Assembly (NCBI GenBank): GCA_003221035.1
Contig: QHUB01000019.1
Coordinates: forward strand, 2,418 to 66,417
Source of the DNA: Gemmatimonadota bacterium
Lineage (GTDB): Bacteria; Gemmatimonadota; Gemmatimonadetes; Gemmatimonadales; GWC2-71-9
Length of the DNA stretch: 64,000 nt
Direction of reading: 5' to 3'
The notes under the pieces were generated by a model that was not told the origin of the DNA, searched no databases, and worked only from the letters and a program-made list of their open reading frames with translations. A program made the position numbers and the translations under genes. This document shows, piece by piece, positions 36,156 through 52,747 of the stretch (the stretch's first letter is position 1; the number at the start of each line of letters is the position of its first letter).

Positions 36156-36684
36156 CGGAAGCCTCGTCTCCGCCCGCCTCCTGGTGTTCCGCGTCGGGAC
36201 ACTGGCGTGGGCAGCCGAGGTGGATCAAGTGCGGGAGATTCTCCCGCGCCTCCCAACGACGCGTATCCCGGGCGCGCCCCCGGTCGTGGCGGGGCTCGTG
36301 AATGTCCGCGGCACACTGGTGACGGTCGTGGAAGGCTGGCGTGCGCTTGCCCCCACCGAGACCTCCCAGCCAAGACCGCCCGAAGACGCGGGTTCGACAC
36401 TCATCCTCGAGGTCGCGTCCGGCAACGGCACGAAGGACGGCAGCGGCAAGAAGCTGGTCGGCTTTACGGTGGACGAAGTGATCGACATGGTAGCGGTGGG
36501 TGACACGACGCTCGAAGATCGTGGTGGTCTTCCCGGCGTGGATCCCACGCTGGTACGCGCCGTCGGGCGACGTAACCGGCCAGGCGGGGCGGGCGGAGGG
36601 GCCGGGGGGGGCGGGGAAAGCGGCAAGGATCTGTTCATTGTGCTGGACCTCGCCGCGCTGCTGGGGCCGGTTCTGACTACTTAA
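36148..36684 (+). CDS. cheW: CheW-like coupling protein with Gly-rich insertion
   Basis: LLVFRVGTLAWAAEVDQVREILP...PPVVAGLVNVRGTLVTVV. The ATG lies 8 nt inside the rluD 3' end. Confidence 0.85.
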   Translation: MIDGSLVSARLLVFRVGTLAWAAEVDQVREILPRLPTTRIPGAPPVVAGLVNVRGTLVTVVEGWRALAPTETSQPRPPEDAGSTLILEVASGNGTKDGSGKKLVGFTVDEVIDMVAVGDTTLEDRGGLPGVDPTLVRAVGRRNRPGGAGGGAGGGGESGKDLFIVLDLAALLGPVLTT

Positions 36685-36694
36685 GGAGCGAGCA

Positions 36695-37057
36695 GTGAGC
36701 CATACGGTGCTGGTGTGTGACGATGCCATCTTCATGCGCACGATGATTACCGACATCCTGGCGCAAGCGGGATTCGAAGTCGTCGGCGAGGCGGAGACCG
36801 GCACGCAGGCCGTCGAAAAATATCGCCAGCTCAAGCCGGACCTCGTCACCATGGACATCGTGATGCCGGACATGGGTGGCATCGACGCCGTCCGCGAGAT
36901 CGTGAAGCAGGATCCCGACGCGAAAATCCTGATGTGCAGCGCCATGGGCCAGCAGGCGTTGGTCGTCGAGGCGATCCAGGCGGGTGCCAAGGATTTTGTG
37001 GTGAAGCCGTTCCAGCCGTCGCGGGTGCTGGAAGCGGTGCAGCGGGTCTTGGGCTAA
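36695..37057 (+). CDS. cheY: chemotaxis response regulator CheY
   Basis: Single REC domain with acidic pocket VCDDA, phospho-site VTMDIVMP, and DFVVKPF. Confidence 0.93.
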   Translation: MSHTVLVCDDAIFMRTMITDILAQAGFEVVGEAETGTQAVEKYRQLKPDLVTMDIVMPDMGGIDAVREIVKQDPDAKILMCSAMGQQALVVEAIQAGAKDFVVKPFQPSRVLEAVQRVLG

Positions 37058-39043
37058 ATGGACCTTTCGCAGTACGCCGAGCTGTTCCTGGCCGAGAGCC
37101 GCGAGCACTTGAGCGCCTGCAATCAGTTGTTGCTCGAGTGGGAGCGGAACCCGGCAGCGCTCCAGCCGGTCGGCGGGCTGTTCCGCGCCGTCCATACGAT
37201 CAAGGGCATGGCCGCGACCATGGGCTACGGCCGCGTCGCCGACCTCGCGCATCGCATGGAGAATCTCCTCGACCAGCTGCGCCGCGGCGGCAAGACTCCC
37301 AGCGACGAAATCATCCAACTGCTCTTCCGGGCGACCGACGCGCTCGAGAAATCGGTGACGGTGGCCGTCGCGGGGCGCGAGCGTGATGCCGACCTCAGCG
37401 TGCTCGAGGCCATCGACGATGCGGCGCTGCAGTTCAGGCCGGCGGCGCAGCCCAGTGGGCTGGCGCGTCTGCGGCCGGAGCCTGCGCCCGCTCCCGCCGA
37501 CGAGCCGAGTTCATCGGCGCCGCAGGTTTCCGCCGATGCCACGAAGTCGGGACCGACACGAGCCGTGCACGTGGTGATTCGACCGGAGGCGCCGTTGAAG
37601 GGCGGCCGGGCGATGCTCGTGCTGAAAAAGGCTGAGCGCTTCGGCGCCGTGCACCGGCTGCAGCCGCCGTCCGCGGCGTTCGAATCCGACGATTTCGACG
37701 GCCGGCTGGAGTTCGAGCTCGAGACGTCCGCCGCCCCGAGCGACATCGAACAGGCGCTGCGAGGCGCGGGCGACGTCGAGCGGGTCGTGGTCGGGGCTGC
37801 CGCCATCGACGAGGCTGTGATCACCACGGGCGAGATCCCGGTGACCGGTGCGCCGAATCCCGCGGGAGGAGCCGGCGGTGGCGCACGCAGTCGCCACATC
37901 CGCGTCGACCTGCGGCGGCTCGATACGCTGATGGACCTCATTGGTGAGCTCGTGACCGAGCGCGGCCGTCTCAACGATCTGGCGGCTCGCTGGATCGGCC
38001 GCGGTGGCGATCCCGAGATCGACGACGTCGCGATTCAGATCTCGCGGCTTTCCGCCGACCTGCAAAACGAAATCATCCAGGCGCGCATGACCCCGGTGTG
38101 GCAGGTGTTCGATCGGTTCCCCCGGCTCGTGCGCGATGTCGGGCGACAGCTCGGCAAGCAGGTGTCCTTCCGCGTCGAAGGGAAGGAGATCGAGCTCGAT
38201 CGCGAGATCCTCGACGAGCTCGGCGATCCACTCGTGCACTTGCTCCGCAACGCGGTCGATCACGGCATCGAGCCGCCGGCCGAGCGCAAGCGGCTGAAAA
38301 AGAATCCCGAGGGGGAGATCGTGCTCGCGGCCGTACGCGAGCGGTCCAGCGTCGCGATCAGCATCTCGGATGACGGCCGCGGCATCGACCGTGCGAAGAT
38401 TCTGGAGAAGGCGAAGCGCGAGGGCGTGGTCGGACCGCACGTCGAATCGCTCTCGGACGATCAGTTGCTGCGCGTGCTGGCGCGCCCGGGATTCTCGACC
38501 GCGGAGGCCGTGACCAGCGTATCCGGGCGCGGCGTCGGGATCGACGTCGCCATGACGCGCATCCGGGCGCTCGGCGGCTCGATCGAGATTCGCACCCAGG
38601 CGGGGAAGGGCACCGCGTTCGTGCTCCGGCTGCCCGTCACGCTCGCGATCGTGCGCGCGCTGATCGCGGCGGTGGGACAGGAGCGCTACGCGTTGCCGCT
38701 CACCTACGTGGCGGAAACGGTGGAGTACGGGACGACTCCGACGACGACGATGGAAGGGCGCGATGCGATCGTGCTGCGCGACCGCGTCGTGCCCCTCGTG
38801 GATCTTCGGAAGCTTCTGGGAACAAACGGCGCCGCCGCTTCGCCCCCCCCTCGCCGCCCCGTCATTGTCTTGGAGATGGGTGAGCGACGCGTGGGGATCG
38901 TCGTGGACGGGATGCTGAGCCAGCAGGAGATCGTCGTGAAGGGGTTCGATGCCCCTCAGGGCACATTGCCGGTGTTCAGTGGAGCCACCATCATGGGCGA
39001 TGGCGTGCCCGCGCTGATCCTGGATGCGGCGGGACTGGTTTAG
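37058..39043 (+). CDS. cheA: chemotaxis histidine kinase CheA
   Basis: Hpt P1 (FRAVHTIKGMAATMG), dimerisation, HATPase (HLLRNAVDHGIE, DDGRGID, GRGVGID) and a C-terminal CheW-like P5. Confidence 0.96.
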   Translation: MDLSQYAELFLAESREHLSACNQLLLEWERNPAALQPVGGLFRAVHTIKGMAATMGYGRVADLAHRMENLLDQLRRGGKTPSDEIIQLLFRATDALEKSVTVAVAGRERDADLSVLEAIDDAALQFRPAAQPSGLARLRPEPAPAPADEPSSSAPQVSADATKSGPTRAVHVVIRPEAPLKGGRAMLVLKKAERFGAVHRLQPPSAAFESDDFDGRLEFELETSAAPSDIEQALRGAGDVERVVVGAAAIDEAVITTGEIPVTGAPNPAGGAGGGARSRHIRVDLRRLDTLMDLIGELVTERGRLNDLAARWIGRGGDPEIDDVAIQISRLSADLQNEIIQARMTPVWQVFDRFPRLVRDVGRQLGKQVSFRVEGKEIELDREILDELGDPLVHLLRNAVDHGIEPPAERKRLKKNPEGEIVLAAVRERSSVAISISDDGRGIDRAKILEKAKREGVVGPHVESLSDDQLLRVLARPGFSTAEAVTSVSGRGVGIDVAMTRIRALGGSIEIRTQAGKGTAFVLRLPVTLAIVRALIAAVGQERYALPLTYVAETVEYGTTPTTTMEGRDAIVLRDRVVPLVDLRKLLGTNGAAASPPPRRPVIVLEMGERRVGIVVDGMLSQQEIVVKGFDAPQGTLPVFSGATIMGDGVPALILDAAGLV

Positions 39044-39049
39044 GACTCG

Positions 39050-39129
39050 GATTTCACACCCTGAAGGGTGTGCTCGGCACATCGTTGTCCTTAAGGACAA
39101 TGCTGGTCGAGCCTACGCTTTAGCGTGGG
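39050..39129. repeat. REP-like structured intergenic repeat, copy B (three adjacent hairpins) between cheA and cheC
   Basis: cacaccc-tgaa-gggtgtg (39055-39072), ttgtcc-ttaa-ggacaa (39085-39100) and cctacgc-ttta-gcgtggg (39112-39129). The first two are homologous to 547-595. Confidence 0.7.
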
Positions 39130-39135
39130 GGGACA

Positions 39136-39753
39136 ATGGAAGACGTCCGTGATCTGAAGGCGCTGCAGCTCGACGCGCTCAAGGAAGTCGCCAACATCGG
39201 CGCGGGCCACGCCGCGACGGCGCTGTCGCAGCTCACGCACCGGCGCATCATGATTTCGGTGCCCGAGATCAACATCGCTCGCCTCGAAGAGGTGCCCGGG
39301 CTGATCGGCGATTCCCAGGAAGTCGTCGCCGCGGTCCTCATGCACATGCTGGGCGATCTCACGGGCCGCACGCTGCTGCTGTTTCCGGAGCCGGTGGCGC
39401 GGCAGCTCTGCGACATGCTGCTGAAACGTCCGCTCGGCACGACCACGTCGTTCGAAACGATCGAGCAGTCGTGTCTCAAGGAAGCGGGCAACATCCTCTC
39501 GGGCGCCTACATGAACGCGTTGTCGGAGTTCATGGGGATGTTGCTGCTGCCGTCGGTTCCCAGCCTGGTCGTGGATCTTTCGGCCGCCGTGCTCACGACG
39601 ACGTATCTGAATTTCGGGCACGATCGCGATTTCGTGTTTTGCGTCGAGACGGAGTTCAGCATCGATGCGCGGGACGGTCTGCGCGGCCATTTCCTGCTGT
39701 TGCCCGACCTGGCGTCTCTCAAAGCGATCTTCGACGCCATCCGGCTGAGCTGA
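39136..39753 (+). CDS. cheC: CheC-family CheY-P phosphatase
   Basis: Two D/S-x3-E-x2-N-x22-P sites: DALKEVANIGAGHAATALSQLTHRRIMISVP and SCLKEAGNILSGAYMNALSEFMGMLLLPSVP. Confidence 0.88.
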   Translation: MEDVRDLKALQLDALKEVANIGAGHAATALSQLTHRRIMISVPEINIARLEEVPGLIGDSQEVVAAVLMHMLGDLTGRTLLLFPEPVARQLCDMLLKRPLGTTTSFETIEQSCLKEAGNILSGAYMNALSEFMGMLLLPSVPSLVVDLSAAVLTTTYLNFGHDRDFVFCVETEFSIDARDGLRGHFLLLPDLASLKAIFDAIRLS

Positions 39754-39755
39754 GC

Positions 39756-42533
39756 GTGACGGCGCCTCAAGCGACGCCTTCCCCGTCCGCCTCGAGCTCC
39801 TCCGCAGGCCCGTCCCCTCCGCCGTCTCCGCCGGTTTCTGAACGTGATCTCGCGGTCCTGCGCTCGTTCGCGCGCCGGATCGATCCGTCGGATGCCGGCG
39901 CGCACAACAACCTCGGCGTGCTGTACTATCAGAAGGGTCTGGTCCCCGAGGCGATCGAGCAGTTCACGCGCGCGTTGGAGCTCGATCCCCGCATGCAGGT
40001 CGCGCAGCGCAACCTCGAGATTGCCTACCATAACACCGGCTATTACGACGCCCGCGTCGCCGAGCTGCAGGAGAAGCTGCGGGGCGCGCCCGACCAGCGG
40101 GACGCGCGCTGGGAGCTGGGTCGTACCTACGCGATTCTTGGCGCGTTCGAGGAGGCGGTCGCGGAATTCGAAGAGCTGCTCGCCCACAAGCCCAAGGATG
40201 TCGCCGCGGTCATCCAGCTCGGGCTCGCCGAGAAAGCGCGCGGCCGTCTCGAGGTCGCGACGGAGTGGTTCGCGCGCGCGGTCGAGCAGGAGCCGGATTC
40301 GTCCGTCGTGCATTTCTACCTGGGCGAGGTCTATTACAATCGCGGGCTGAACGAGCCGGCGCTCACGGCGCTCGAGCGCGCCGTCTCGCTCAATCCTGAC
40401 AACGCCAACGCGCACTATCTGATGGCGTTCGTCCTGGGCGACATGGGCCGGCACCAGGACGCGCGCGCCGCGTCGAAGCGCGCGATCCAGCTCAACCCGC
40501 CGCTCGCGCGCGCGCAGACGAATCTGTCGCTCGAGCGCTATCGCGCCGAGCGCCAGACGGCCGAGCACCGGATCCGCGAGCAGCCCGCCCCGGAAGTCGC
40601 CGAAGGCAGCGAACTGGCGCACTGCAACCTCGGTCTCGCGTTCCGGCAGAAGGGCTATTACACGGAGGCGTTACGCGAGTATCGGCTCGCGATCGAGCGC
40701 GGCGAAGACCGCCGCCTGGTCCGGCAGGCGATGGCGGAGGTCCATCTCCTCAAGCGCGATTTCGGCGACGCGCTCGAGCTGTACGAGTCGCTGATCCACG
40801 AGACCCCGGAGTCGCCGAAGTTATGGAACGAGCGCGGCGTCGTGCTGCATCAGGCGGGCCGGACGGCGGAGGCGCTGACGTCGTACCGCCAGGCGACGGA
40901 GGTGGACGCGCGCTACGCGCTGGCCTGGAACAACGTCGGCGTCGTGCTCGCGCATCACGGCAATACCGACGACGCCATCGAGGCCTTCCGCAAGGCGCTG
41001 CAGCTGTCGCCCCAGTTCGTCGGCGCGCGACTCAATCTCGCCTTGCTGCTCGCGCACCTGCGGCGTTTCCAGCTCGCGCTCGAGGCATATCGCCAGGTGC
41101 TCGCCGATCAGGCCAACTCCGCCCCGGCGTGGAACGGCGTGGGACTCGTGCTCGTGGAGCTCAAGCGATTTCCCGACGCGCGGAACGCGTTCGTGCGCGC
41201 GGTCGAAGCGGATCCGCAGAATGCGGGTGCGCACTACAACCTCAGCTTCGCGCTGTCCAACCTGGGCGATTACGACGGCGCGCTGCGTGCGACCAAGCGC
41301 GCGCTCGAGCTCGATCCGTACTATGTGTCGCAGAAGTTCGCGCTCGCGATCGATCTCCAGTATGAGACCGTCGCGATCGGCATCATTCCCGAGATTTCGG
41401 CCGACGTCCCCGCCGAGAATCTCGGCGGAGAATTCGCGTTCGACCAGCGGCTGCTCGACAACATTTTCCACGAGCTGCAGCCGGCCGCCACGGGCGTGGC
41501 GCAACAGCCCGCCGCCGCCGGCCTCGCGAAAAAAGCCGACGACCCGCTGGCGCTGGCGCGCGATTACGAGAGCAAGGGGATGATGGATCTCGCCGTGGCG
41601 GAGGCGATGCGCGCAGTCCAACGCGGCGCGGACAAGGGTCTGGCCGCCACGCTGATCGGCGACATCTACGCGCGCCGCGGACTGCACGGCGAAGCGCTGG
41701 AGCGCTACCGCGACGCGCGCACGCTGGACGCCGCGAACGCGGCCGCCGCGCTCGGCGAGGTGCAGAGTCTGCTGGGGTTGCACCGCGGGGCCGAGGCGCT
41801 TCCCATTGCCGAGGACCTGGTCACCAGGGCGCCCGAGCATGTTGAGGTCCTGGTTGCGGCGGCCAAGGCGCGGGCCGCCACGGGCGATGCGGCGGGAGCA
41901 CTGACGGCGCTGCGCCAGGCGCAGACGCGCGCGCCGGCCCGCGCCGATCTGCACAAGCTGCAGGGCGACATTGCCCTCAAAGTGGGCGACCGCCAGGGTG
42001 CTCGCACGGCCTACCGCGGCGCGCTCGACCTGGACAAGGGGTTCGTGCAGGTGTGGCTCGACCTGGGCCGACTCCACGAACAGGACGAAGAATGGCCGGA
42101 CGCGCAACGCGCGTACGAGGAGGCGCTCGAGGCGCTGCCGACGTTCCACGAAGCGGCGCTCGCGCTGTCCGACCTGTTGCGCCGCACCGGAGGGCTTCGC
42201 GCCGCTGTCGTGCGGCTTGCCGGGATGCTGGAGCAGGACCCGTACGACATGGACGCGCTGCTGCTGCTCGGCCGCACGCTCCTCGACGACAAGCGCAACG
42301 CGGAAGGGCTCGAAGTGTTCAGGCGCGCGCTCAAGTTCGATCCCGATCACACCGGCGCGCTGTTTTATCTCGGCGCGACCCTCGCGCGGCTGCAGCGCTA
42401 CGCCGAGGCGGTGGATGCGTGGGAGCGCGTGACGCGGATCGACCCCGGCGGGCCGTTCGCGCAGCGCGCGCGCGTGCATGCGCGCACCGCCGTCGACCTG
42501 CAGCACATCTTCTCAACCTCGGACGCGGCGTAG
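39756..42533 (+). CDS. large tetratricopeptide-repeat protein (~925 aa)
   Basis: Pro/Ser-rich N-terminus, then many TPR units (AHNNLGVLYYQKGL..., AWNNVGVVLAHHGN..., AHYNLSFALSNLGDY...). GTG 3 nt after the cheC stop. Confidence 0.85.
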   Translation: MTAPQATPSPSASSSSAGPSPPPSPPVSERDLAVLRSFARRIDPSDAGAHNNLGVLYYQKGLVPEAIEQFTRALELDPRMQVAQRNLEIAYHNTGYYDARVAELQEKLRGAPDQRDARWELGRTYAILGAFEEAVAEFEELLAHKPKDVAAVIQLGLAEKARGRLEVATEWFARAVEQEPDSSVVHFYLGEVYYNRGLNEPALTALERAVSLNPDNANAHYLMAFVLGDMGRHQDARAASKRAIQLNPPLARAQTNLSLERYRAERQTAEHRIREQPAPEVAEGSELAHCNLGLAFRQKGYYTEALREYRLAIERGEDRRLVRQAMAEVHLLKRDFGDALELYESLIHETPESPKLWNERGVVLHQAGRTAEALTSYRQATEVDARYALAWNNVGVVLAHHGNTDDAIEAFRKALQLSPQFVGARLNLALLLAHLRRFQLALEAYRQVLADQANSAPAWNGVGLVLVELKRFPDARNAFVRAVEADPQNAGAHYNLSFALSNLGDYDGALRATKRALELDPYYVSQKFALAIDLQYETVAIGIIPEISADVPAENLGGEFAFDQRLLDNIFHELQPAATGVAQQPAAAGLAKKADDPLALARDYESKGMMDLAVAEAMRAVQRGADKGLAATLIGDIYARRGLHGEALERYRDARTLDAANAAAALGEVQSLLGLHRGAEALPIAEDLVTRAPEHVEVLVAAAKARAATGDAAGALTALRQAQTRAPARADLHKLQGDIALKVGDRQGARTAYRGALDLDKGFVQVWLDLGRLHEQDEEWPDAQRAYEEALEALPTFHEAALALSDLLRRTGGLRAAVVRLAGMLEQDPYDMDALLLLGRTLLDDKRNAEGLEVFRRALKFDPDHTGALFYLGATLARLQRYAEAVDAWERVTRIDPGGPFAQRARVHARTAVDLQHIFSTSDAA

Positions 42534-42536
42534 CGC

Positions 42537-43688
42537 ATGGCCATCGAAGGACCGCTGCGCGAGCTCGGGATCCACGACGTCTTCCAGCTGCTCGACTTGA
42601 GCCGGAAGACCGGCGCGCTGCGCGTCACGTCGGAGCTGCGTCACAACGAGGGGACGGTCTACTTCGACAACGGCGTCGTCGTGTCGGCCGAGATCCGCTC
42701 CAACCCGCATCCGCTGGGTGCGCTGCTCCTGCGCACCGGCAAGATCGGCGAGGCCGACCTCGAGCGCGCGCGGGACATGCAGCAGCGCCAAGGCGACAAG
42801 CGGCGGCTGGGCGAAATCCTGGTGTCCCTGGGCGTGATCACGCAGCGCGAGGTCGAACGGCAGGTGCGGTTCCAGATCGAAGAAGTCGTCTTCGAGGTCA
42901 TGAGCTGGAACGAAGGCTACTTCTCGTTCGCCGAGCAGACGGAGAGCAAAGTCCCGACGGAGCTGACGGTTCGAATCCCGGTCGAGGCGCTGCTCATGGA
43001 AGGCGCGCGCCGCATTGACGAATGGTCGCGCATCGAAAACCGGATTCCGCACGTCGGCGTCGTGCCGTCCCTGGCGCCGCCGCCGGAAGGCGGAGGCGGC
43101 GAGCTCGACCTGCTGCCGCCCGAGTGGGAAGTGCTCGCGCTCATCGACGGTGAGCGCTCGGTACGCGGCCTCGCGACCGAGCTCGGCCGCTCGGACTTCG
43201 AAGTCGCGAAGACGCTGTTTGGGCTCGAGAGCGCCGGCGTGATCGTGCTGGTCGATCCAGGGCATTCCCGCCGCGCTCGACCGGGCGCCGGCGGTGACCT
43301 CGCGGAGCTCGTCGCAGAGCTGATGGCGAAGGCTGAGACCGCCCTGCACGCGAAGGACCTCGACGCGGCGCGCGCCGCGGCCGAGCAGGCCGGCAGCATG
43401 CAGCCGCACGACGCGACGATCCATCTGGTGCTCGGACGTATTCACCTCGCGCAAGGACACGCATCCGCGGCGGCCGAGGAGCTCCGGCGAGCGCTGCGGC
43501 TCGATCCACTCCTGGCGGCGGCGCATCGCCATCTGGGGTTCGCGCACGTGTCGATGGGACGCTTCGGTGAAGCCGTGGAGAGCTGGGATCAGTGGGACCG
43601 CCTGGCGAGCCGCAGTCCCGAGGAAGACGCGCAGCGCGGAGCTGTGGATCGCGCGCGGCAGGCGGCCAAGGTATTCGCGCATGGATGA
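42537..43688 (+). CDS. PATAN/DUF4388 domain protein with C-terminal TPR
   Basis: N-terminus GPLRELGIHDVFQLLDLSRKTGALRVTS...GTVYFDNGVVVSA, with a helical insertion (LGEILVSLGVITQREVERQ). TPR tail. Confidence 0.8.
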   Translation: MAIEGPLRELGIHDVFQLLDLSRKTGALRVTSELRHNEGTVYFDNGVVVSAEIRSNPHPLGALLLRTGKIGEADLERARDMQQRQGDKRRLGEILVSLGVITQREVERQVRFQIEEVVFEVMSWNEGYFSFAEQTESKVPTELTVRIPVEALLMEGARRIDEWSRIENRIPHVGVVPSLAPPPEGGGGELDLLPPEWEVLALIDGERSVRGLATELGRSDFEVAKTLFGLESAGVIVLVDPGHSRRARPGAGGDLAELVAELMAKAETALHAKDLDAARAAAEQAGSMQPHDATIHLVLGRIHLAQGHASAAAEELRRALRLDPLLAAAHRHLGFAHVSMGRFGEAVESWDQWDRLASRSPEEDAQRGAVDRARQAAKVFAHG

Positions 43689-44523
43689 AATTCGGGCGCT
43701 CTCGGCGCAGCTCGCGCAGGATCCGCAGAGTCTGGTGTTCCTGCGGCTCGGCGAAGCGTTGCGCCGCAAAGGGCAGCTCGACGCGGCGCTGCGCGTCGCC
43801 ACGAACGGCCTGGAGCGCCATCCGCATCTTGCCGACGCGCACGACCTGTACGCGCGCATCCTGACGGACAAGCACGACTACGAGAAGGCATTCGACGAGT
43901 GGGACATGGCCGTGCGAATCGCGCCGCACCATACGGGCGCGCTGAAGGGACTTGCCTTCCTCTACTTCAAGATCGGAGACCTGCAGCAGGCTGAAGCGCA
44001 TCTCGCCGCTGCCAAGCGAGTCGAGCCCGACGATCCGACCATCGATCAGGCGATCGAGATGATGCGTGGCGGAGCGAAAGGACCGGCCGAGCAACCCGCC
44101 GCCCCTTCGCCGCCCTCCGGCGCCGCTTCAATCGCCGCCCCGGCAGCCGCGACCGGCGGACTCGATGAAGCCCGAGTGTTCGCCGGTCTTGAGGGGGCCA
44201 ATGAAGGCTTGCTCCTCATCGATGGTTCGGGGCGGGTACTCGGTGGGGCGCTAAAAGACGGCGGGGGAACGGACGTCACGGACGCGGTCGCCGCGTATCT
44301 GGCGGGTGTGTCTCAGGAAGCCGCGCGTACGGCGAAGTTGCTCGGTCTTGGCGCCTGGAACGGCCTCTCGGCGGAGGGGCAGCATGGAAACGTACACCTC
44401 GCCCACCCGACGCCTGACGCCTTGCTCCTGGTGGTCCGCGAGCGCGGCATTCCACTGGGCCGGCTCGCCATTCTCGCGCAGCGCGCGACGTTGATGGCGC
44501 GCCGCTGGCTGGAGCGACAGTGA
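43681..44523 (+). CDS. TPR + Roadblock/LC7 fusion protein
   Basis: N-terminal TPRs and an Ala/Pro linker. The C-terminal segment is Roadblock-like (GLLLIDGSGRVLGG...AAYLAGVSQEAARTAKLLGLG...LLLVVRE). The ATG overlaps the upstream stop by 8 nt. Confidence 0.75.
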   Translation: MDEIRALSAQLAQDPQSLVFLRLGEALRRKGQLDAALRVATNGLERHPHLADAHDLYARILTDKHDYEKAFDEWDMAVRIAPHHTGALKGLAFLYFKIGDLQQAEAHLAAAKRVEPDDPTIDQAIEMMRGGAKGPAEQPAAPSPPSGAASIAAPAAATGGLDEARVFAGLEGANEGLLLIDGSGRVLGGALKDGGGTDVTDAVAAYLAGVSQEAARTAKLLGLGAWNGLSAEGQHGNVHLAHPTPDALLLVVRERGIPLGRLAILAQRATLMARRWLERQ

Positions 44524-44867
44524 GCGCGGCGCTCGATCTGATCACGCGGGTGCGCGGGGTGCGCGGCGCGATGCTCGTCTCGGCCGAGGACGGGCTCGTC
44601 GTCGCCGAACAACTGATGGAGGGGATCAAGGGCAGTGCGGTCGCCGCACTGGCCGCGAGTTTGGCAGGACGGCTGCGCCGCGCGATGGAAGCGTCAGGGA
44701 CCGGGAGGAGCGTATTCTGGCATCTTCAGGCCGAGCAGGGGGCGCTGCTGGTCGTGCCCAGCGGGGAGGAGTCCGGCAATCTCCTGGTCGTCGCCGTAGC
44801 CGAGCCCGACGTGAATATTGGACTGGTGCGTCTGGAGCTGCTGCGCGCGGCGGAGGCCGGTACATGA
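44520..44867 (+). CDS. Roadblock/LC7 domain protein (MglB/MglC-like paralogue)
   Basis: VRGVRGAMLVSAEDGLVVAEQL...AALAASLAGRLRRA...LLVVAVAEPDVNIGLVRLEL. 4-nt overlaps on both sides. Confidence 0.8.
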   Translation: MSAALDLITRVRGVRGAMLVSAEDGLVVAEQLMEGIKGSAVAALAASLAGRLRRAMEASGTGRSVFWHLQAEQGALLVVPSGEESGNLLVVAVAEPDVNIGLVRLELLRAAEAGT

Positions 44868-45340
44868 GTCCGCACACGCGCGCCGTCGAGACCTGGACGC
44901 TACAGCCGCTGACCGACTTCGTGCGCGAAGCGTCGGCGCGGCTGGTGCTGGTGCTTACGCCGTCCGGCCAGGTACTGGCGCAGTCGGGCTTCTCGCGCGC
45001 GGTGGACGTGATGTCCGCCGCCGCGCTCGCCGCCGCGATCGTCGCATCGACGGGCGAGCTCGCGCGCCAGCTCCGCCAGCCGCCGTTCGCCGCGCTCAGT
45101 CATCAGGGTCCCCGGACCGGATTCTTTCTCGCGACGTTCCTGACCGACCGCGGGACGCTCGCCGTGCTGGCCGTCTACGATCTCGACGTTTCATCACTGG
45201 GCATCGTTCAATTATTCTATGAGCAACTTGCGGCGGACTTGAAGGCGGCGAGTCCGAAAGGAGCGGTACCGAAACAGGTGCTGGCGGCAGACTTCGAGCG
45301 GGAGTTGACGGACAGCCTCAACACGCTGTTTGGGAGATAG
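44864..45340 (+). CDS. mglB: MglB-like Roadblock/LC7 GTPase-activating protein
   Basis: 158 aa, directly upstream of mglA as in Myxococcus. Roadblock core [15 protein letters not shown]...[16 protein letters not shown]...[19 protein letters not shown]. The acidic C-tail ...DSLNTLFGR resembles the MglB tail. Confidence 0.75.
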
Positions 45341-45347
45341 GCGGCGC

Positions 45348-45950
45348 ATGTCCCTGGTCAACTTCACGGCCCGCGAGATCACGTGCAAAATCGTCTATTA
45401 CGGACCGGGGCGGTCCGGCAAGACGACCAATCTCCATTACATCTACGGACGTGTGCCGGAGACGCGGCGCGGGCGCATGGTCTCGCTCGCGACGCAAACC
45501 GACCGCACGCTGTTTTTCGATTTCCTGCCGATCGACCTCGGCCAGATCTCGGGGTTCGCGACGCGATTTCAGCTCTACACGGTGCCGGGCCAGGTCTACT
45601 ACAACGCCACCCGCCGGCTCGTGCTGCAGGGCGCCGATGGCGTCGTCTTTGTGGGCGACAGCCAGGCGCGGCAGCTCGACGAGAACATCGAGAGTCTCCA
45701 GAATCTCCAAAGCAATCTGCTGGAGCACGGCGTGGACGTGCGCGCGATGCCGCTGGTCATGCAGTACAACAAGCAGGACCTGCCCCCCGAGCTGATCTTG
45801 ACTCCTCCCGAGCTCGATGACGCGCTCAACTTTCGGAGCGTACCGAGCTTTCCGGCGGATGCGCTCCACGGCAGAGGCGTGTTCGAAACGCTCAAGTCGG
45901 TATCGGAGTTAGTCCTCAAGAAGCTCGCGGCGGGGAGTCCCGCATCATGA
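45348..45950 (+). CDS. mglA: Ras-like small GTPase MglA
   Basis: Near-colinear with M. xanthus MglA as I recall it: [21 protein letters not shown] (P-loop), [27 protein letters not shown]. Confidence 0.92.
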
Positions 45951-47899
45951 CCAGCTCGCTGAATCCCCGCTTTACGTTCGAGACCTTCGTGGTGGGTGCG
46001 GCCAATCGTCTCGCCGTCACGGCGGGACGAACCGTGGCCGAGAATCCCGGGTCCGCCTACAACCCCCTTTTCATTTATAGTGGCTCCGGGTTAGGGAAGA
46101 CGCACGTGCTCATGGCGATCGGTCATGCGGCCAAGACGATCGCCTCGCAGCTCAACATCGAATACCTGACCCTGGATGAGTACGTCGAGGCCTTTCACGC
46201 GGCCATCGCCGCGGGTCAGGGCGACGCTTTCCGCCGCCGCTTTCAGAACGTCGACGTGCTGCTCGTAGACGACGTTCAGTTCCTCACGAATCGCAAGGAG
46301 ATGCAGGCCGAATTGCTGCGGCTGACCGAGGCGCTGCAGCAGTCTGGTCATCAGATCGTCCTCGCCAGCGACCGGCCGCCCGCGGAGATCGCCGATTTGG
46401 ACGAGCGGTTGATCTCGCGATTCTCCGGCGGGCTCGTGGTCGACATGGGCATCCCCGACTACGAGACGCGCGTCGCGATTCTGCGCCGCAAGGCCGAGGA
46501 GCGCGGCAGCAAGTTCCAACCCGGCGTGCTCGAGGCGGTCGCGAAAGTCGAATACCCAAACGTCCGCGAGCTCATGGGCGCACTCAATCGCTTGATCGCG
46601 TTTCAGGCGGTCAACGACATGCCGATCAACGAGGAGACGGTTCGCAAGGTGTTGGGCGTCCCGACCGCCGGTTCACCGACCGCCGGTTCATCGACCGTCG
46701 CCTCACCTACCGTCGGTTCACCCGACGAGTTCTCTCAGTTCTTGAGCGATGTCACCGTCACCGTCGGCAAGGCTGTCGAAGCCTGGAGAGCGCGCGTCGC
46801 CGAGGCGGTCATGCGCTGGGAGGGCGAAGGCTACCGGACCGGCCGGCTCGAAAAGCTGCTCGAGCAGGAGACACCCGCCGCGGTGGACGAAGCGATCGCG
46901 GCGTACGTGCAGGATGTCGAGCGGCTCAAGACGCTCGAGGCGGAAGTCGCGGTGCTCGATCCGCAGGCTGCCGGCGAAAAGGTGTTTCGCGATCCCGATC
47001 ATATGGAGGCGGCCGAAGCAGCGGCCGCGAAGGTGCGGGAGGGCGCCGCGCCGCCGCCCGCACCGTCGGCCGCGTTCCCGCTCGAGACCTATTGTGCCGG
47101 CGCATCCAATGAGGTCGCGTTGAACGCGGCGCGCGACGTGATCGCGAAGCCCGGCAAGAAATACAATCCGCTCGTCATCGTGGGTCGCAGCGGCCTCGGT
47201 AAAACGCATCTCCTCAATGCCATCGGCGTCGAGCTGGCCAGGAAGAAGCACGCGGTCGTCGCCTGCCTGTCGACGCAGCAGTTCGTGGACGAGCTGATTG
47301 CGGCGATCGACGGCAACCGCGTGGACTGGTGGCGTGCGCGCTACCGTCGTGCGACGGCGCTCTTGCTCGATGACATCCAGCTGCTCGCGGGGAAAGAGCG
47401 GACGCAGGAAGAGCTGTTCAACCTGTTCAATCACCTCGTGGACGCCGACCGCCAGCTCATCTTCACGGCGCCGGCGCATCCCAACACGCTCGAGGGAATC
47501 GAGGAGCGCATCGTCTCGCGGCTCGAGGGCGGTCTGGTCGCCGAGATCGCGGAACCGGACAAGGATCTGCGTCGTGGCATGCTGGAGCGGCTGCTCACGC
47601 AGCACCGCGTACCCGTGGAGCCCGCGCTCCTCGATTATCTGGCCGACCGCCCGATCGACTCCGTGCGAAACTTGACCGGCATCGTGCAACGCATCATCGA
47701 AGCCGCGGCGGCACAGGACGCGCCGGTGACGGCGGGTCTGGCGCGCGAAGTGCTGGAAGGCGCCCCGGTGCCGCGGCGCACGACCGGTCTGCGCACGAGC
47801 GGGATTGTGGTGTCGAGCGCGGGGGGCGTCCGCAGCCGGGAGAAGATGGTCTGGGACTGGCCCACATCGGGAGACCGCGTGATCGAGGATCTGCGCTAA
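45947..47899 (+). CDS. tandem double DnaA/Hda-type AAA+ ATPase protein lacking DnaA domains I and IV
   Basis: Module 1 (~aa 7-236): [49 protein letters not shown]. Module 2 (~aa 386-606): [49 protein letters not shown]. No HTH domain IV. ATGA overlap with mglA. Confidence 0.85.
46661..46720 (+). repeat. 4 x 15-nt tandem repeat inside the double-AAA+ gene linker
   Basis: ccgaccgccggttca, ccgaccgccggttca, tcgaccgtcgcctca, cctaccgtcggttca. These encode [20 protein letters not shown]. Confidence 0.9.
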
Positions 47900-49516
47900 A
47901 TGGCGATCAAAGGCTCGCTCAAGGAAGCGTCCCTCCCCGACGTCCTGCAGCTGCTCGCGCTGGGGCAGAAGACCGGCTGCCTGTCGATCGCCGACCGCTC
48001 GAACTTCGGCTACATCTACTTCGACAAGGGCCGGATCTCGTACGCCTCGATCGTCAATCGCCGCGACCGCCTCGGCGACATCCTCGTCAAGCACGAGAAG
48101 ATCACGCAGGAGCAGCTCGACGCCGCGATCCATCGCCAGTCCAAGGAGCGCGACAAGAAGCTCGGCGAGATCCTGGTCGTACAGAGTGTGCTCACGCAGC
48201 AGGAGCTCGAGCGGTACATGCGGATGCAGATCGAGGAGTCGGTCTACTATCTGTTCACCTGGACGCAGGGGACGTTCAATTTCGAGTCCGACGTCCGCCC
48301 GGAGCAGCAGGACTTTCTCGTCTCCATCAATCCCGAGTCGCTGCTGCTGGAAGGGGCGCGGCGCGTGGACGAGTGGGGGCTGATCGAAAAGAAGATCCCG
48401 TCGTTCGACCTGATCTTTCTCGTGGATCGCGATCGCCTCGCGATCAGCGACGCCACGCTGACCGAGGTCCAGGATCGGCTCCTCTCGCTGCTCGACGGCT
48501 CGCGCGACGTCAACCAGGTGATCGAAGACTCCGGGCTGGGCGAATTCGAAGTCGGCAAGGCGCTCTACGGTCTCGTCACCGCCGGATTTCTGCATCGGGC
48601 GGGTCGCACGATCAGCGCCGAAGACGTCAAGATGACCGATGCGCGCGTGGAGGAGCACCGCAACCTCGGCATCGCGTTCTACAAGACCGGGATGCTGGAC
48701 GAAGCGGCGCGCGAATTCCGGCGCGTGGCGGAGCTGCGCGGCACCGATGCCAACGCGCATTTTTTCATCGGGCTGGTGGCGCTCAAACAGGCGCGCTGGC
48801 GCGAGGCGATGGAAGCGCTGCGGCTCGCCGCCGAGAAGGGCGGCTCCCGTCCCGCGGTGCTCCACAATCTCGGCCTCGCGTTCGAGCAGCTCGGCCGACT
48901 GGAGGATGCCGAGGCCGCCTACGCGGAAGCGGCGTCGCGGGCGAAGACCGATCCCCGAGTCTACCTCGGATGGGGCATCGTCGCGCTCAAGCAGGGCGAT
49001 CATCGCGGCGCGGCCGGTCGGCTCGACCGCGCGAAGGAGCTGTTCGCCGCGCACGTCCCGCCGATCTGGTTCTGGGCGCGCGCGCTCGCCGCGGCGGCCG
49101 CCGGCGATTTCGAGACCGCCGAGCAGGTGGCCGGCCAGGCCGTCGAAGCGCATCCGCAACACGGCGTGCTGCGCAACAACCTGGCGGTGCTGCACGAGCT
49201 GGCCGGAGACCTGACCAAGGCCGAGGAGCTGGCGCGCGCGGCGCTGCGGGACGAGCCCTCCCTGCCGCAGCTGTCCAAGAATCTCGGTGACCTCGCCTAC
49301 CGCAGCTCGCGCTACGACGAGGCATGGGATCTGTACCAGCGCGCGATCGATCTCGCCCCGGAGCTCGGCGACGACGTCTACTTCAAGCTCGGCAACATCG
49401 CGTACAAGCGAAACGACCGCGAGCAGGCGAGCGAGCTGTGGCGGCGCGCGCTGGAGCTCAATCCCAAACACGAGCTCGTCAAGGCAAATCTGGATACCCT
49501 GAGCAGTCTGTCGTGA
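47900..49516 (+). CDS. PATAN/DUF4388 domain protein with C-terminal TPR (second paralogue)
   Basis: GSLKEASLPDVLQLLALGQKTGCLSIAD...GYIYFDKGRISYA, with helical insertion LGEILVVQSVLTQQELERY. Long TPR tail. The ATG directly follows the upstream stop. Confidence 0.82.
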   Translation: MAIKGSLKEASLPDVLQLLALGQKTGCLSIADRSNFGYIYFDKGRISYASIVNRRDRLGDILVKHEKITQEQLDAAIHRQSKERDKKLGEILVVQSVLTQQELERYMRMQIEESVYYLFTWTQGTFNFESDVRPEQQDFLVSINPESLLLEGARRVDEWGLIEKKIPSFDLIFLVDRDRLAISDATLTEVQDRLLSLLDGSRDVNQVIEDSGLGEFEVGKALYGLVTAGFLHRAGRTISAEDVKMTDARVEEHRNLGIAFYKTGMLDEAAREFRRVAELRGTDANAHFFIGLVALKQARWREAMEALRLAAEKGGSRPAVLHNLGLAFEQLGRLEDAEAAYAEAASRAKTDPRVYLGWGIVALKQGDHRGAAGRLDRAKELFAAHVPPIWFWARALAAAAAGDFETAEQVAGQAVEAHPQHGVLRNNLAVLHELAGDLTKAEELARAALRDEPSLPQLSKNLGDLAYRSSRYDEAWDLYQRAIDLAPELGDDVYFKLGNIAYKRNDREQASELWRRALELNPKHELVKANLDTLSSLS

Positions 49517-50286
49517 CCGATGAGGGGGCCTTCGAAGCCCTGACGCAGAAGATTTCGCGCGAGCGGGGCATGAGCTGCGGGTCGTACAAGAACAAGTGCC
49601 TGAAGCGCCGCATCGCGGTGCGGATGCGGGCGCGCGCCATCCACACCTACGACGATTACGCCAGACTCCTCGATCGCGACCCGCACGAGTACCAGGCGCT
49701 GCTCGATGCGCTGACCATCAACGTCACCAAGTTCTATCGCAATCCAGAGACGTGGGATGCGCTGCGGCCGTATCTCGCGGAGCTCTGGACGGTGCGGCGC
49801 GGCGCGCTGCGGATCTGGTCGGCGGGGTGCGCGTCAGGCGAGGAGCCGTACACGATCGCCGTGCTGCTCGCCGCCGCCGGAGCGCAGGGCACGATCGACG
49901 CGACCGACATCGACCGGCTGAGTCTCGAGCGGACCCGCCAGGCGCAGTATCCCGATGCCGCGTTCACCGAGATGCCTGCGGATCTGCGGCGACGCTACTT
50001 CCGCGACGGCCAACCGGCGCAGGAGGTCCGGGCGCTCGTGCACGTCCTGGCGCACGACCTCACCCGCGAGCCGCCGCCCCGCACGACGTACGACCTGATC
50101 GTGTGCCGCAACGTGGTGATCTACTTCGAGCGCTCGGCGCAGGAGCGCCTGTTTCAGGTCTTTGTCGACGCGCTGCGACCCGGCGGCGTGCTGGTCCTCG
50201 GAAAAGTGGAGACGCTGTTCGGGCCGGCGCGCGAGCGCCTGACGCTCGCCGATCCGCGCGAGCGGATTTACCGCAAGCCCGCGTGA
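49513..50286 (+). CDS. cheR: chemotaxis protein methyltransferase CheR
   Basis: INVTKFYRNPETW and SAM-binding IWSAGCASGEEPYTIA ... DLIVCRNVVIYF. The GTG overlaps the upstream stop. Confidence 0.9.
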   Translation: MTDEGAFEALTQKISRERGMSCGSYKNKCLKRRIAVRMRARAIHTYDDYARLLDRDPHEYQALLDALTINVTKFYRNPETWDALRPYLAELWTVRRGALRIWSAGCASGEEPYTIAVLLAAAGAQGTIDATDIDRLSLERTRQAQYPDAAFTEMPADLRRRYFRDGQPAQEVRALVHVLAHDLTREPPPRTTYDLIVCRNVVIYFERSAQERLFQVFVDALRPGGVLVLGKVETLFGPARERLTLADPRERIYRKPA

Positions 50287-50765
50287 AGGAAATCATCGTC
50301 AAAGTCGCGGACTGGGCAGCCGAGCGAGGCGATGGCGTCCTGGTGACGCTGGGTCTGGGCTCCTGCGTCGCCATCATGCTGCACGATCTGGAGACGCAGA
50401 CCGGCGGCATGGCGCACGTGCTGCTGCCGTCCACGAGCCTTGCCCGCGACATCACGAACCGCGCGAAGTTTCCCGATACCGCCGTGCCGCTGCTCGTCGA
50501 GCGACTCAGCAGACTGGGCGCGGATCCGCGCCGGCTGGTCGCCAAACTGGCGGGCGGCGCGCGCATGTTCAGTCAGCTCGTCACCCCCGGCACGATCCAG
50601 ATGGGCGAGCGCAATGTCCTGGCATGCCGCAGCGCGCTGCGCGCGGCGGCCATCCCCATTGTCCGGGAATCCGTCGGTGGCGAGCGTGGCCGCAGCGTGC
50701 GCTTCCATCTGAGCGACGGTCGCGTCGAGATCCGTTCGGTCGGAACGAATGTCGATGTCATCTGA
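50283..50765 (+). CDS. cheD: chemoreceptor glutamine deamidase CheD
   Basis: [16 protein letters not shown]...GGMAHVLLP...GERNV. The GTG overlaps the cheR stop. Confidence 0.9.
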
Positions 50766-51858
50766 TCAACCCGCCCGGCCCACCGTGCTCGTCGCCGACG
50801 ACAGCGCGCTGATGCGGCGCGTGCTCGCCGATGTGCTGGGCGGCGGCGACGCGAACGACGGTGCGTTTCGCGTCGTGGCGACCGCCCGCGATGGACTCGA
50901 CGCGATTCGCAAGGTCCATCAGCACAACCCGGACGTCGTCACACTCGATCTCGAGATGCCTCAGCTCGACGGGCTTGGCGCCATCGGATACATCATGTCC
51001 GAGGCGCCGCGGCCGATCGTGGTGGTGAGTGCGCACGCCGGGCCGGGGACACAGGCGGCGATCCGCGCGCTCGAGCTCGGTGCAGTCGAAATCGTCGCGA
51101 AGCCGCCGCTGCCCGCGGAGGGATTTGGCCATCCGCGCGCCGCACTCGAGGCGCTGGCGCCCGCGCTGATCGCCGCCGTGCGCCGCGCGCTCGCGGCGGA
51201 TGTGTCCCACGTGAAGGTGCTGGCGCGGCCCCCGGCGCCGGTCGTCCATCCACCGGATCTGGGGCTGCGCGGGCGCGCGTGGTTCGCCGTTGGAATCGCC
51301 GCATCCACCGGCGGCCCGCGTGCGCTCGCGGACGTCGTGCCGCGCCTCCCCACCGGTCGCCGCGCCGCGGTTCTGGTCGTGCAACACATGCCGCCCAAGT
51401 TCACGCGCAGTCTCGCGGAGCGGCTCGATTCGATGAGTCACCTGCGCGTCGTCGAGGCGGACGACGGGGCACCGATCGTCGCCGACACGGCGTACGTGGC
51501 CCCGGGCGATTATCATATGCGTGTGCGCTCGGCTCCCGATGGTCCCGTGATCGCGCTCGACCAATCAGCGCCGATTTGGGGTGTGCGGCCGGCGGCCGAT
51601 CCGCTGTTCCGCTCCATCGCGGAGGCGTACGGCGCCCGGAGCGTGGGCGTCGTCCTCACCGGGATGGGCCGAGACGGCGCCGACGGCTTGCGCGCGATCA
51701 AAGACGCGGGCGGCAGTGGCTTCGCCCAAGACCGTGAAACCGCCGTCATTTCCGGCATGCCGGCCGCGGCGGTGCAGGCGGGAGGCGTCGATGCCGTGTT
51801 GCCGCTCGGCCAGATCGCCGAGCGCGTGACCGCCGAGCTGGCGCGAAAGGGACGATGA
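50749..51858 (+). CDS. cheB: protein-glutamate methylesterase/response regulator CheB
   Basis: REC domain ([25 protein letters not shown]) plus methylesterase domain ([21 protein letters not shown]). Confidence 0.93.
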
Positions 51859-52277
51859 AGGGCTACTTGCTCGTGCGGTCCGAGGGAAAGGCCTACGGTT
51901 TGCCGGTCGCGAGTGTGCTGGAAGTGGGCGATACGACCGAAGTCTTCCCCATTCCGCGCAAGCTTCCCGCGGTCCGCGGATTGACGCCGCTGCGGGGCCG
52001 TCTGGTGCCGCTCATTCATCTGGGTGCGCTGCTCACGGGTCGCGAAGCCCCGGCGCTGTCGTCGGGATCGCGGACCGTCGTGCTCGTGCAACTCGGAGGA
52101 GTTACGCGCGACCGCCAGGCCGCGTTCGAGGTGGACGACGCCGATGCCGTCGTGCGCGAGCAGCCGCTGCCGGTGCCGCGCGGGCATTCACTGCCATGGG
52201 CCGCGGGCGTGGCCGAGCGGGAGGGCGGGCTGGTCCCGATCCTCGATCTCGATGCGCTGGGCGATCGGATCGTATGA
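51855..52277 (+). CDS. cheW: CheW-like coupling protein
   Basis: [21 protein letters not shown]...[25 protein letters not shown] overlap with cheB. Confidence 0.82.
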
Positions 52278-52747
52278 GCACCATCACGAGCGCCGGCGGC
52301 GACGACATCCAGCTGGTCACGTTCAAGGTGGCCGGTCAGGATTTCGCCTTCAACATCTTTCAGGTGGAGCGCATTCTGCGGTATGAGGCACCGGCGCCGC
52401 TGCCCAAGGCGCCGGAGTTTCTGGCAGGGGTGTTGCAATACCAGGGCAATGCCGTGCCCCTCGTCGATCTGCGCAAGCGGCTCGGTGCCGCGGCGCCGCT
52501 GCGCGAAGACACCCGCACCGTCATCCTCGAGTTCGACGGCGGCAAGATCGGCGTGATCGTCGATGCGGTGACGGAAGTGATGCAGGTCGCGGCCCAGGCG
52601 GTGACCCCTCCGCCCGGCATCGTGCGCGGGCTCGCCGCGGAATACATCGCGGGCCTGGTTGTGCAGAATGGCCGGACCATCGTCGTGCTGAACACGAACA
52701 AGCTGCTCAACTCGACCGAGAAGCTGGCTCTGCAGGAAGCGACATGA
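52274..52747 (+). CDS. cheW: CheW-like coupling protein
   Basis: QLVTFKVAGQDFAFNIFQVERILR...FLAGVLQYQGNAVPLVDLRKRLG...IGVIVDAVTEV. The ATG overlaps the upstream stop. Confidence 0.88.
   Translation: MSTITSAGGDDIQLVTFKVAGQDFAFNIFQVERILRYEAPAPLPKAPEFLAGVLQYQGNAVPLVDLRKRLGAAAPLREDTRTVILEFDGGKIGVIVDAVTEVMQVAAQAVTPPPGIVRGLAAEYIAGLVVQNGRTIVVLNTNKLLNSTEKLALQEAT

Follow-up and report, generated by a model that had tools for sequence, protein, structure and literature searches.

Three Roadblock genes, one of them fused to a TPR domain, precede an mglA paralogue in a Che operon of Gemmatimonadales

MglA and MglB serve as the model of a Ras-like switch through which bacteria establish and reverse their cell polarity, and the tuning of that switch by extra Roadblock proteins such as MglC is an active question. 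We analysed a 64-kb stretch of DNA (the window; contig QHUB01000019.1) from the metagenome-assembled genome (3.36 Mb, 98.7% complete) of an uncultured soil bacterium of the Gemmatimonadales in which three Roadblock/LC7 genes stand directly upstream of an mglA gene. The plus strand from 36148 to 53610 of the window is one tight gene array, which runs, 5' to 3', cheW, cheY, cheA, cheC, a large TPR protein, a PATAN (DUF4388)-TPR protein, a TPR-Roadblock fusion (RoblA), a minimal Roadblock protein (Robl115, here RoblB), an MglB-type Roadblock protein (MglB158), mglA, a tandem DnaA-type AAA+ ATPase, a second PATAN-TPR protein, a CheD-containing protein, cheB, cheW, and a TPR protein (Table 1). The first PATAN-TPR gene ends within the start of RoblA in an 8-nt overlap, ATGGATGA (43681-43688); RoblA and RoblB share the four nucleotides GTGA (44520-44523), and RoblB and MglB158 share ATGA (44864-44867). 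MglB158 ends at 45340, and after a 7-nt gap mglA most likely starts at ATG 45348, upstream of which stands GGGAGA, rather than at TTG 45330; mglA in turn overlaps the AAA+ gene by ATGA (45947-45950). These junctions, read from the DNA, agree with an earlier note on this stretch, which had described three consecutive overlapping Roadblock open reading frames (ORFs) directly 5' of mglA; the ORFs are as it gave them, with the correction that the span it drew begins at 42537, where the first PATAN-TPR gene starts and no Roadblock gene does. The three Roadblock genes are thus co-located and translationally coupled, and, as set out below, they are conserved together with the mglA of the operon.

Table 1. 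The Roadblock trio, mglA and adjoining genes, in positions of the window
Feature	Coordinates	Strand	Length	Evidence
PATAN (DUF4388)-TPR protein	42537..43688	+	383 aa	Pfam DUF4388 (E 1.6e-32) and TPR families
RoblA, TPR-Roadblock fusion	43681..44523	+	280 aa	Pfam TPR families and Robl_LC7 (E 7e-4), orthologue profile, AlphaFold2 (AF2) model
RoblB (Robl115), minimal stand-alone Roadblock/LC7 protein	44520..44867	+	115 aa	Pfam Robl_LC7 (39.8 bits), AF2, Foldseek
MglB158, MglB-type Roadblock protein with conserved C-terminal tail	44864..45340	+	158 aa	Pfam Robl_LC7 (23.8 bits), family profile
Group-1 MglA paralogue	45348..45950	+	200 aa	M. xanthus MglA match, motifs
Tandem DnaA-type AAA+ ATPase (context, outside the Roadblock trio)	45947..47899	+	650 aa	Pfam Bac_DnaA (E 1e-103) in two stretches; NCBIfam DnaA and Hda models cover domain III only
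Second PATAN-TPR protein (context)	47900..49516	+	538 aa	Two DUF4388 stretches (Pfam E 1e-38) and TPR

All three ORFs carry a Roadblock/LC7 domain. In hidden Markov model (HMM) searches with the Pfam family Robl_LC7 (PF03259, gathering cut-off 23 bits), RoblB scored above the cut-off (39.8 bits, E 3.7e-10) and MglB158 narrowly above it (23.8 bits, E 3.7e-5); the window's copy of RoblA fell below it as a single sequence (19.7-21.5 bits; E 7e-4 at 19.7 bits). The C-terminal domain of RoblA (44161-44520) was cut from orthologues gathered over 87 loci, and all 41 copies scanned matched Robl_LC7 at E <= 0.01, the best at 4e-10. A profile of the same domain matched solved Roadblock proteins in the PDB, from Thorarchaeota (7f8m, 1.7e-6) and Thermus thermophilus (MglB, 3.7e-5). 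The AF2 model of RoblA (predicted local distance difference test, pLDDT, 86) consists of an eight-helix TPR domain at residues 1-130 (pLDDT ~97), which is short and holds three repeats, a disordered linker at 139-163, and a C-terminal domain of beta-beta-alpha-beta-beta-beta-alpha order (pLDDT 74-92) in which helix alpha1 is not modelled. A Foldseek search with this full-length model returned TPR proteins alone and was uninformative on the C-terminal domain, which was therefore assigned through profiles. RoblB was modelled with pLDDT 92 in the full alpha-beta-beta-alpha-beta-beta-beta-alpha order, and Foldseek aligned it with Asgard Roadblock proteins (template modelling score, TM, 0.87-0.89), T. 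thermophilus MglB (0.82-0.84), and LAMTOR2/p14 (0.80-0.84). The Roadblock fold proposed for these ORFs in the earlier note is accordingly supported by Robl_LC7 itself for RoblB and MglB158, and for RoblA by the 41 orthologues, the PDB profile matches, and a profile-profile comparison (hhalign, below).

The GTPase encoded next to the trio is, by its motifs, a group-1 MglA. Its full length aligns with M. xanthus MglA (E 6e-73), and it carries the P-loop, DRT (the intrinsic Arg beside the G2 Thr), and YTVPGQ; the group is defined by a P-loop, an intrinsic Arg beside the conserved G2 Thr, and a TVPGQ G3 motif (PMC4316618). The P-loop and PGQ motif that the note had read in this protein are both present in the translation, together with the DRT segment, and its "single mglA" holds at this locus; elsewhere in the genome, the minus strand of contig C81 (5700-6872) carries another mglA together with a canonical mglB, adjoining recR, ybaB, and dnaX. 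That pair encodes a 224-aa MglA and a 161-aa MglB ending ...EIDKLFG; the two MglAs of the genome are 51% identical and the two MglBs 33% identical. Compared with the operon MglA and M. xanthus MglA, the 224-aa protein has an insertion of ~25 residues near its C-terminus. A fifth Roadblock gene is an orphan of 117 aa (Robl_LC7 E 1.3e-9) on contig C113 (5077-5863), followed by a 138-aa stand-alone receiver-domain protein, and an equivalent orphan is present in Gemmatimonas-like genomes. The genome has one CheA, located within this array, four PilT-family ATPases above the family cut-off, and two PilB-like ATPases. No flagellin gene was found in the genome (98.7% complete), so the Che pathway here cannot steer flagella.

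Within the trio, two kinds of Roadblock protein can be told apart. Judged by profile comparison, MglB158 is a genuine MglB type: its family profile matched exclusively MglB chains in the PDB (M. xanthus, 3e-16; T. thermophilus, 9e-11), and it is the sole member of the trio with a strongly conserved C-terminal tail, which includes invariant columns. The RoblB profile favours generic Roadblock and dynein LC7 chains (7f8m, 2e-11), with MglB at 2e-3 only. Aligned with hhalign, the RoblA C-terminal domain matched RoblB with a probability of 92% (E 7e-7, 101 columns), as against 1.8% with MglB158, and RoblB matched MglB158 with 36%; on this evidence, the RoblA C-terminal domain and RoblB are each other's closest paralogues and generic Roadblocks. 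MglB158 is also MglB by position as well as type, in that it adjoins a group-1 mglA and is closer to MglB than to other Roadblocks; neither RoblB nor the fusion domain is. We infer from this homology that MglB158 would be the cognate GTPase-activating protein (GAP) of the operon MglA. The split between MglB158 and the sister pair echoes the group-1 systems with two MglB genes, in which just one of the two is placed in the clade co-evolving with MglA (PMC4316618).

The arrangement is conserved well beyond this genome. RoblA is full length in 24 of the 24 sufficiently long genomes of the genus and in most genomes of two sister families. Among 87 Gemmatimonadota loci, from seven genomes of these families plus another 80 GTDB species that almost all bear the label Gemmatimonadales, the order RoblA, RoblB, MglB158, MglA never varied where the contig was long enough, which bears out the co-occurrence of the triplet in related genomes. 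Where the contig allowed, these loci also shared the wider order cheA ... PATAN-TPR, RoblA, RoblB, MglB158, MglA, AAA+, PATAN-TPR. Across 301 evenly sampled genomes of the phylum, the Roadblock domain of RoblA was present in 177; family by family, the counts were 122/124, 42/70, 3/3, 5/6, 1/1, and 3/4, and the domain was not found in six other families. Strong matches to MglB158 came from the same families, and a weaker match (~1e-18) to canonical MglB occurred nearly everywhere in them. The tallies include one unpublished genome (G179), on which no claim depends and without which counts shift by one. Against same-genus orthologues, the ratio of nonsynonymous to synonymous substitution rates (dN/dS) was 0.09 for RoblA, 0.11 for RoblB, 0.07 for MglB158, and 0.05 for MglA. 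All three Roadblock genes are under purifying selection, and values of 0.07 to 0.11 rule out that the trio consists of decaying duplicates.

Three natural variants show which parts of the trio stay together. In the first, one genus of a sister family has a 342-aa PATAN protein and then, directly, MglA, with no Roadblock gene between them; elsewhere in these genomes there are just the canonical MglB and the orphan Roadblock. The MglA of this genus is the most diverged copy seen, with 61% identity to that of the window versus 71-82% in other genomes of the order. In the second (genome G037 and metagenome contigs L102-L104), RoblA is followed by a RoblB-like gene of ~120 aa and MglA, and MglB158 is absent. 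In the third (contig L105), the RoblA domain is free (121 aa) and is followed by Roadblock genes of 114 and 155 aa and MglA. Across the variants seen, then, RoblA and RoblB stay as a pair, MglB158 can be absent without them, and the fusion to TPR is a secondary feature.

The genus whose operon has no Roadblock gene appears to include Gemmatimonas aurantiaca T-27. The mglA genes of one of its genomes lie at 1.33 and 1.69 Mb and fit the locus tags GAU_1115 and GAU_1409, which are entered as 'MglB>MglA>' and 'PATAN>MglA>-PATAN>' in the catalogue of Wuichet and Sogaard-Andersen (2014, PMC4316618). In the portion of that catalogue considered here, GAU_1409 is the only Gemmatimonadetes entry for this operon and is without MglB, in agreement with the Roadblock-free genus. 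If the identity is right, G. aurantiaca, which does not have the trio, was the only cultured genome available in 2014, and the trio may thereby have gone unnoticed.

Several further patterns and gene models were considered and set aside. Loss of the trio seemed tied to flagella in six genomes; in the 301-genome sample, the trio was kept by every one of the 25 genomes with flagellin in the window's own family and by a dozen in a second family. An apparent 284-aa fusion of RoblB to MglB in genome G033, which might have served as Rosetta-stone evidence, is out of frame in the middle of the ORF, and the true C-terminus and stop of RoblB lie in another frame. This is a frameshift within RoblB (L016, 9577-10431, minus strand) of a near-complete, 3-contig genome, and it is either a sequencing error or a true pseudogene. 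Longer metagenome proteins that match the RoblB profile (P0135, P0085, P0130, and others) have out-of-frame Arg-rich stretches or abrupt junctions and were treated as assembly or frameshift artefacts. Two of these, P0085 and P0130, are independent metagenome ORFs that join a RoblB-like N-terminal half to an MglB158-like protein at a similar point; the joins are probably assembly chimerism between adjacent paralogues. Contig L106 was set aside as frameshift-ridden.

The sister relationship and joint inheritance of RoblA and RoblB are accompanied by a predicted physical pairing. With each partner supplied to the complex predictor as its own alignment, the RoblA C-terminal domain and RoblB reached an interaction prediction score from aligned errors (ipSAE) of 0.82, against 0.00 for the best of three controls, which were unrelated proteins rather than paralogues or homodimers. 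Of 80 solved complexes, 58 attain the mark used for this score, as do 2 of 110 mismatched pairs; these counts hold only roughly here since own alignments were used. Three runs agreed in at least 97% of contacts, with a pLDDT of at least 85 for the partner. The modelled interface is made by helix alpha2 and an antiparallel beta3-beta3 ladder (residues 60-78 versus 58-76), and alpha2/beta3 is the mode in which MglB dimerises (PMC3199381). The model thus predicts a canonical alpha2/beta3 Roadblock heterodimer of the RoblA C-terminal domain and RoblB. All characterised bacterial Roadblock regulators, MglB and MglC, are homodimeric (PMC3199381; PMC10329633), and each protein of the trio could likewise form a homodimer that acts separately on MglA, as GAP, exchange factor, or effector-like adaptor, with no heteromer at all. 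We consider this unlikely in view of the heterodimer score relative to its best control, the joint presence or absence of RoblA and RoblB in the variants seen, and the 4-nt overlaps, which suggest matched production.

A second rival concerns the choice of partner. RoblB and MglB158 could form a hard-wired asymmetric heterodimeric GAP in which one subunit carries the C-terminal helix, and RoblA would then be a separate homodimer. Such an arrangement would suit the known MglB dimer, which contacts one MglA asymmetrically (PMC3199381), the presence of the C-terminal tail on MglB158 alone, and the ATGA overlap that joins the two genes. However, lineages that have no MglB158 keep RoblB with the TPR fusion, the profiles of RoblB and MglB158 are weakly related, and the sole apparent fusion of the two (in G033) is the frameshift described above. 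Rate covariation also speaks, weakly, against this pairing: in a mirror-tree comparison over 57 loci, with four other operon proteins regressed out and permutation counts that ignore shared ancestry, the partial correlation between RoblB and MglB158 was close to zero (0.09; -0.08 for near loci only). Taken together, these points make a RoblB-MglB158 GAP quite improbable.

The same comparison bears on whether the two generic Roadblocks serve MglA in the first place. They might instead regulate another nucleotide-binding protein of the array, the AAA+ ATPase with its two DnaA-type modules, or link the Che proteins with the PATAN-TPR scaffolds; the Roadblock superfamily has been linked to NTPase regulation generally (Koonin and Aravind 2000, cited in PMC10329633), translation of the AAA+ gene is coupled to that of mglA, and TPR and PATAN proteins flank the trio. 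Nevertheless, the strongest residual rate covariation of RoblB, with a partial r of 0.49 (0.43 when just the near loci are used), was with MglA, which is suggestive but weak evidence, the trio stands directly 5' of mglA in every locus, and the genus without the trio has the most diverged MglA. We therefore regard a role unconnected to MglA as very unlikely.

The best overall explanation, to which we give an even chance of being right, is that the operon encodes a two-tier set of Roadblock regulators for its own MglA paralogue. In the first tier, MglB158 would act as the cognate MglB-type GAP; in the manner of known MglBs, it would have a C-terminal helix and turn towards MglA-GTP the side of a Roadblock dimer that is formed by two helices. 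In the second, the sister paralogues RoblA and RoblB would pair through helix alpha2 and strand beta3 into a heterodimer, a proposal that draws on the complex model and on their co-occurrence, and this heterodimer may serve as an adaptor or second regulator, like the Myxococcus MglC dimer or a Ragulator LAMTOR pair. It could dock on the MglB dimer as MglC does, or bind MglA itself, and the flexibly tethered TPR domain of RoblA might recruit a further partner. The output may be polarity or type IV pilus-dependent movement, with the Che pathway acting through the MglA module as Frz does in Myxococcus; the single CheA in the array, the type IV pilus motors, and the absence of flagellin from the genome make such an output likely.

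A number of observations weigh against this two-tier explanation. Roadblock dimers are well represented among solved structures, so that the score of the complex model may reflect likeness to them; it shows such likeness and is no proof of preference over homodimers or over MglB158. The partial correlation between the RoblA C-terminal domain and RoblB (0.48) falls to 0.19 without the three most distant loci and is not robust. For MglB158 as a GAP, the score against the NCBIfam MglB equivalog NF052242, a model built on Thermus-type MglB, was 30.2 bits at a cut-off of 200, with the alignment running to the last position of the model. Arg substitution at the alpha2 positions A64 and G68 of M. xanthus MglB, or A68 and A72 of T. 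thermophilus MglB, cripples GAP activity (PMC3199381); in the HMMER alignment, A64 corresponds to A61 of MglB158, invariant in the family, and G68 to Glu65, so that one of the two positions is kept. MglB158 is plainly of another type than RoblB and the fusion domain and is absent in some lineages, both of which tell against a single obligatory three-part complex, and the operon of the Roadblock-free genus keeps MglA and all its other genes, showing that the trio is dispensable to MglA, the AAA+ protein, and the Che genes.

The earlier note had concluded that one GTPase with three co-translated Roadblock partners suggests a heteromeric regulator more elaborate than mglBA. What stands of this is that three coupled Roadblock genes are present, two of which are predicted to pair; a single obligatory three-part complex is doubtful, given the absence of MglB158 in some lineages and of the trio in one genus, and the idea of one GTPase overlooks the second mglBA pair. 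With three coupled and conserved Roadblock genes and a predicted heterodimer, a regulator beyond mglBA is therefore the most economical reading. A bolder version of the two-tier explanation, possible but doubtful, would have RoblA and RoblB form an obligate heterodimer that binds MglA directly, a bacterial counterpart of Ragulator-Rag that acts as exchange factor, co-GAP, or nucleotide-state sensor, with the TPR domain connecting the cycle of the GTPase with the Che phosphorelay, with the PATAN-TPR scaffolds, or with the DnaA-like ATPase. Were this true, bacteria would have their first example of a small GTPase regulated by a Roadblock heterodimer.

Compared with MglA/MglB of M. xanthus and T. 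thermophilus, the module shares a group-1 MglA, an adjacent upstream MglB-type Roadblock with a tail, and the predicted alpha2/beta3 dimer mode; it differs in having two further Roadblock genes in the operon, one of them TPR-fused, and in that its MglA is a second paralogue beside a canonical mglBA, set inside a Che operon. MglC, itself a homodimeric Roadblock protein, docks on MglB, and the stacked Roadblock dimers have been likened to Ragulator (PMC10329633). Like the RomR/MglC/MglB module, the operon described here has an extra tail-less Roadblock beside MglB and MglA, for which stacked Roadblock dimers can be proposed; unlike MglC, which is a homodimer encoded away from mglBA, the extra Roadblocks are two paralogues predicted to heterodimerise, one with a TPR domain, that adjoin mglA, and there is no RomR gene in this operon. 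MglC chains, which bear a conserved surface patch of F25, D26, and I28, were found neither among the PDB sequence matches of the RoblB profile at E <= 10 nor among the 50 best fold matches of RoblB. With Ragulator (LAMTOR2/3 and LAMTOR4/5), the module would share heterodimeric Roadblock pairs as a platform for small GTPases, here predicted, as well as the match of the RoblB model to LAMTOR2/p14; Ragulator is, however, a eukaryotic lysosomal scaffold whose Rag GTPases have Roadblock domains of their own, and the likeness is taken no further than the shared fold.

The 2014 catalogue already contains some group-1 MglA genes with two MglB-family genes (1:2 MglA:MglB clusters) and PATAN genes sometimes nearby; the part of its Table S2 considered here holds no three-Roadblock system, and TPR occurs nowhere in its main text (PMC4316618). 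TPR proteins around MglA also have precedents in SgmX of M. xanthus and Bd2492 of Bdellovibrio, which, in the parts of the sources considered, act with MglA in the control of type IV pili (PMC11580455, PMC3983030); those are separate effectors, whereas the TPR domain here is short and fused to a Roadblock, and the two are likened by description only.

Some features of the neighbouring genes deserve mention in their own right. The longest ORF of the large TPR protein (39471-42533), from GTG 39471, would overlap cheC (39136-39753) by ~280 nt; orthologue alignments begin near the end of cheC, and the true start is probably near 39750. The AAA+ protein consists of two DnaA domain-III-type modules, without DnaA domains I/II or the DNA-binding domain IV, and is kept in every related locus, including the Roadblock-free genus. 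Both PATAN-TPR proteins match an NCBIfam MshE-related motif that binds cyclic di-GMP (E 5.6e-10 in the first and 1.6e-13 in the second), and the module may therefore sense this nucleotide.

Literature searches on Gemmatimonadetes MglA, on PATAN with MglA and Roadblock, and on Roadblock heterodimers with TPR found no description of three Roadblock genes, or of a TPR-Roadblock fusion, with mglA. Two-MglB clusters, PATAN neighbours, MglC, and the Ragulator analogy are already published; new here are the separation of the trio into one MglB-type protein and two sister paralogues, the predicted pairing of these sisters as a heterodimer, the variants among lineages, and the probable link to the published G. 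aurantiaca entry. The trio also corrects the impression left by the 2014 catalogue that no MglB is coupled to this MglA paralogue. In a widespread soil lineage, one operon encodes MglA, an MglB, and what is probably a Roadblock heterodimer equipped with a TPR handle, a compact and co-expressed set that could be reconstituted in vitro, and nature supplies the comparisons: the trio, the pair without MglB, the unfused form, and the Roadblock-free operon of the Gemmatimonas type. Reconstitution would test whether Roadblock platforms that are stacked or heterodimeric, as in the eukaryotic Ragulator, also work in bacteria.

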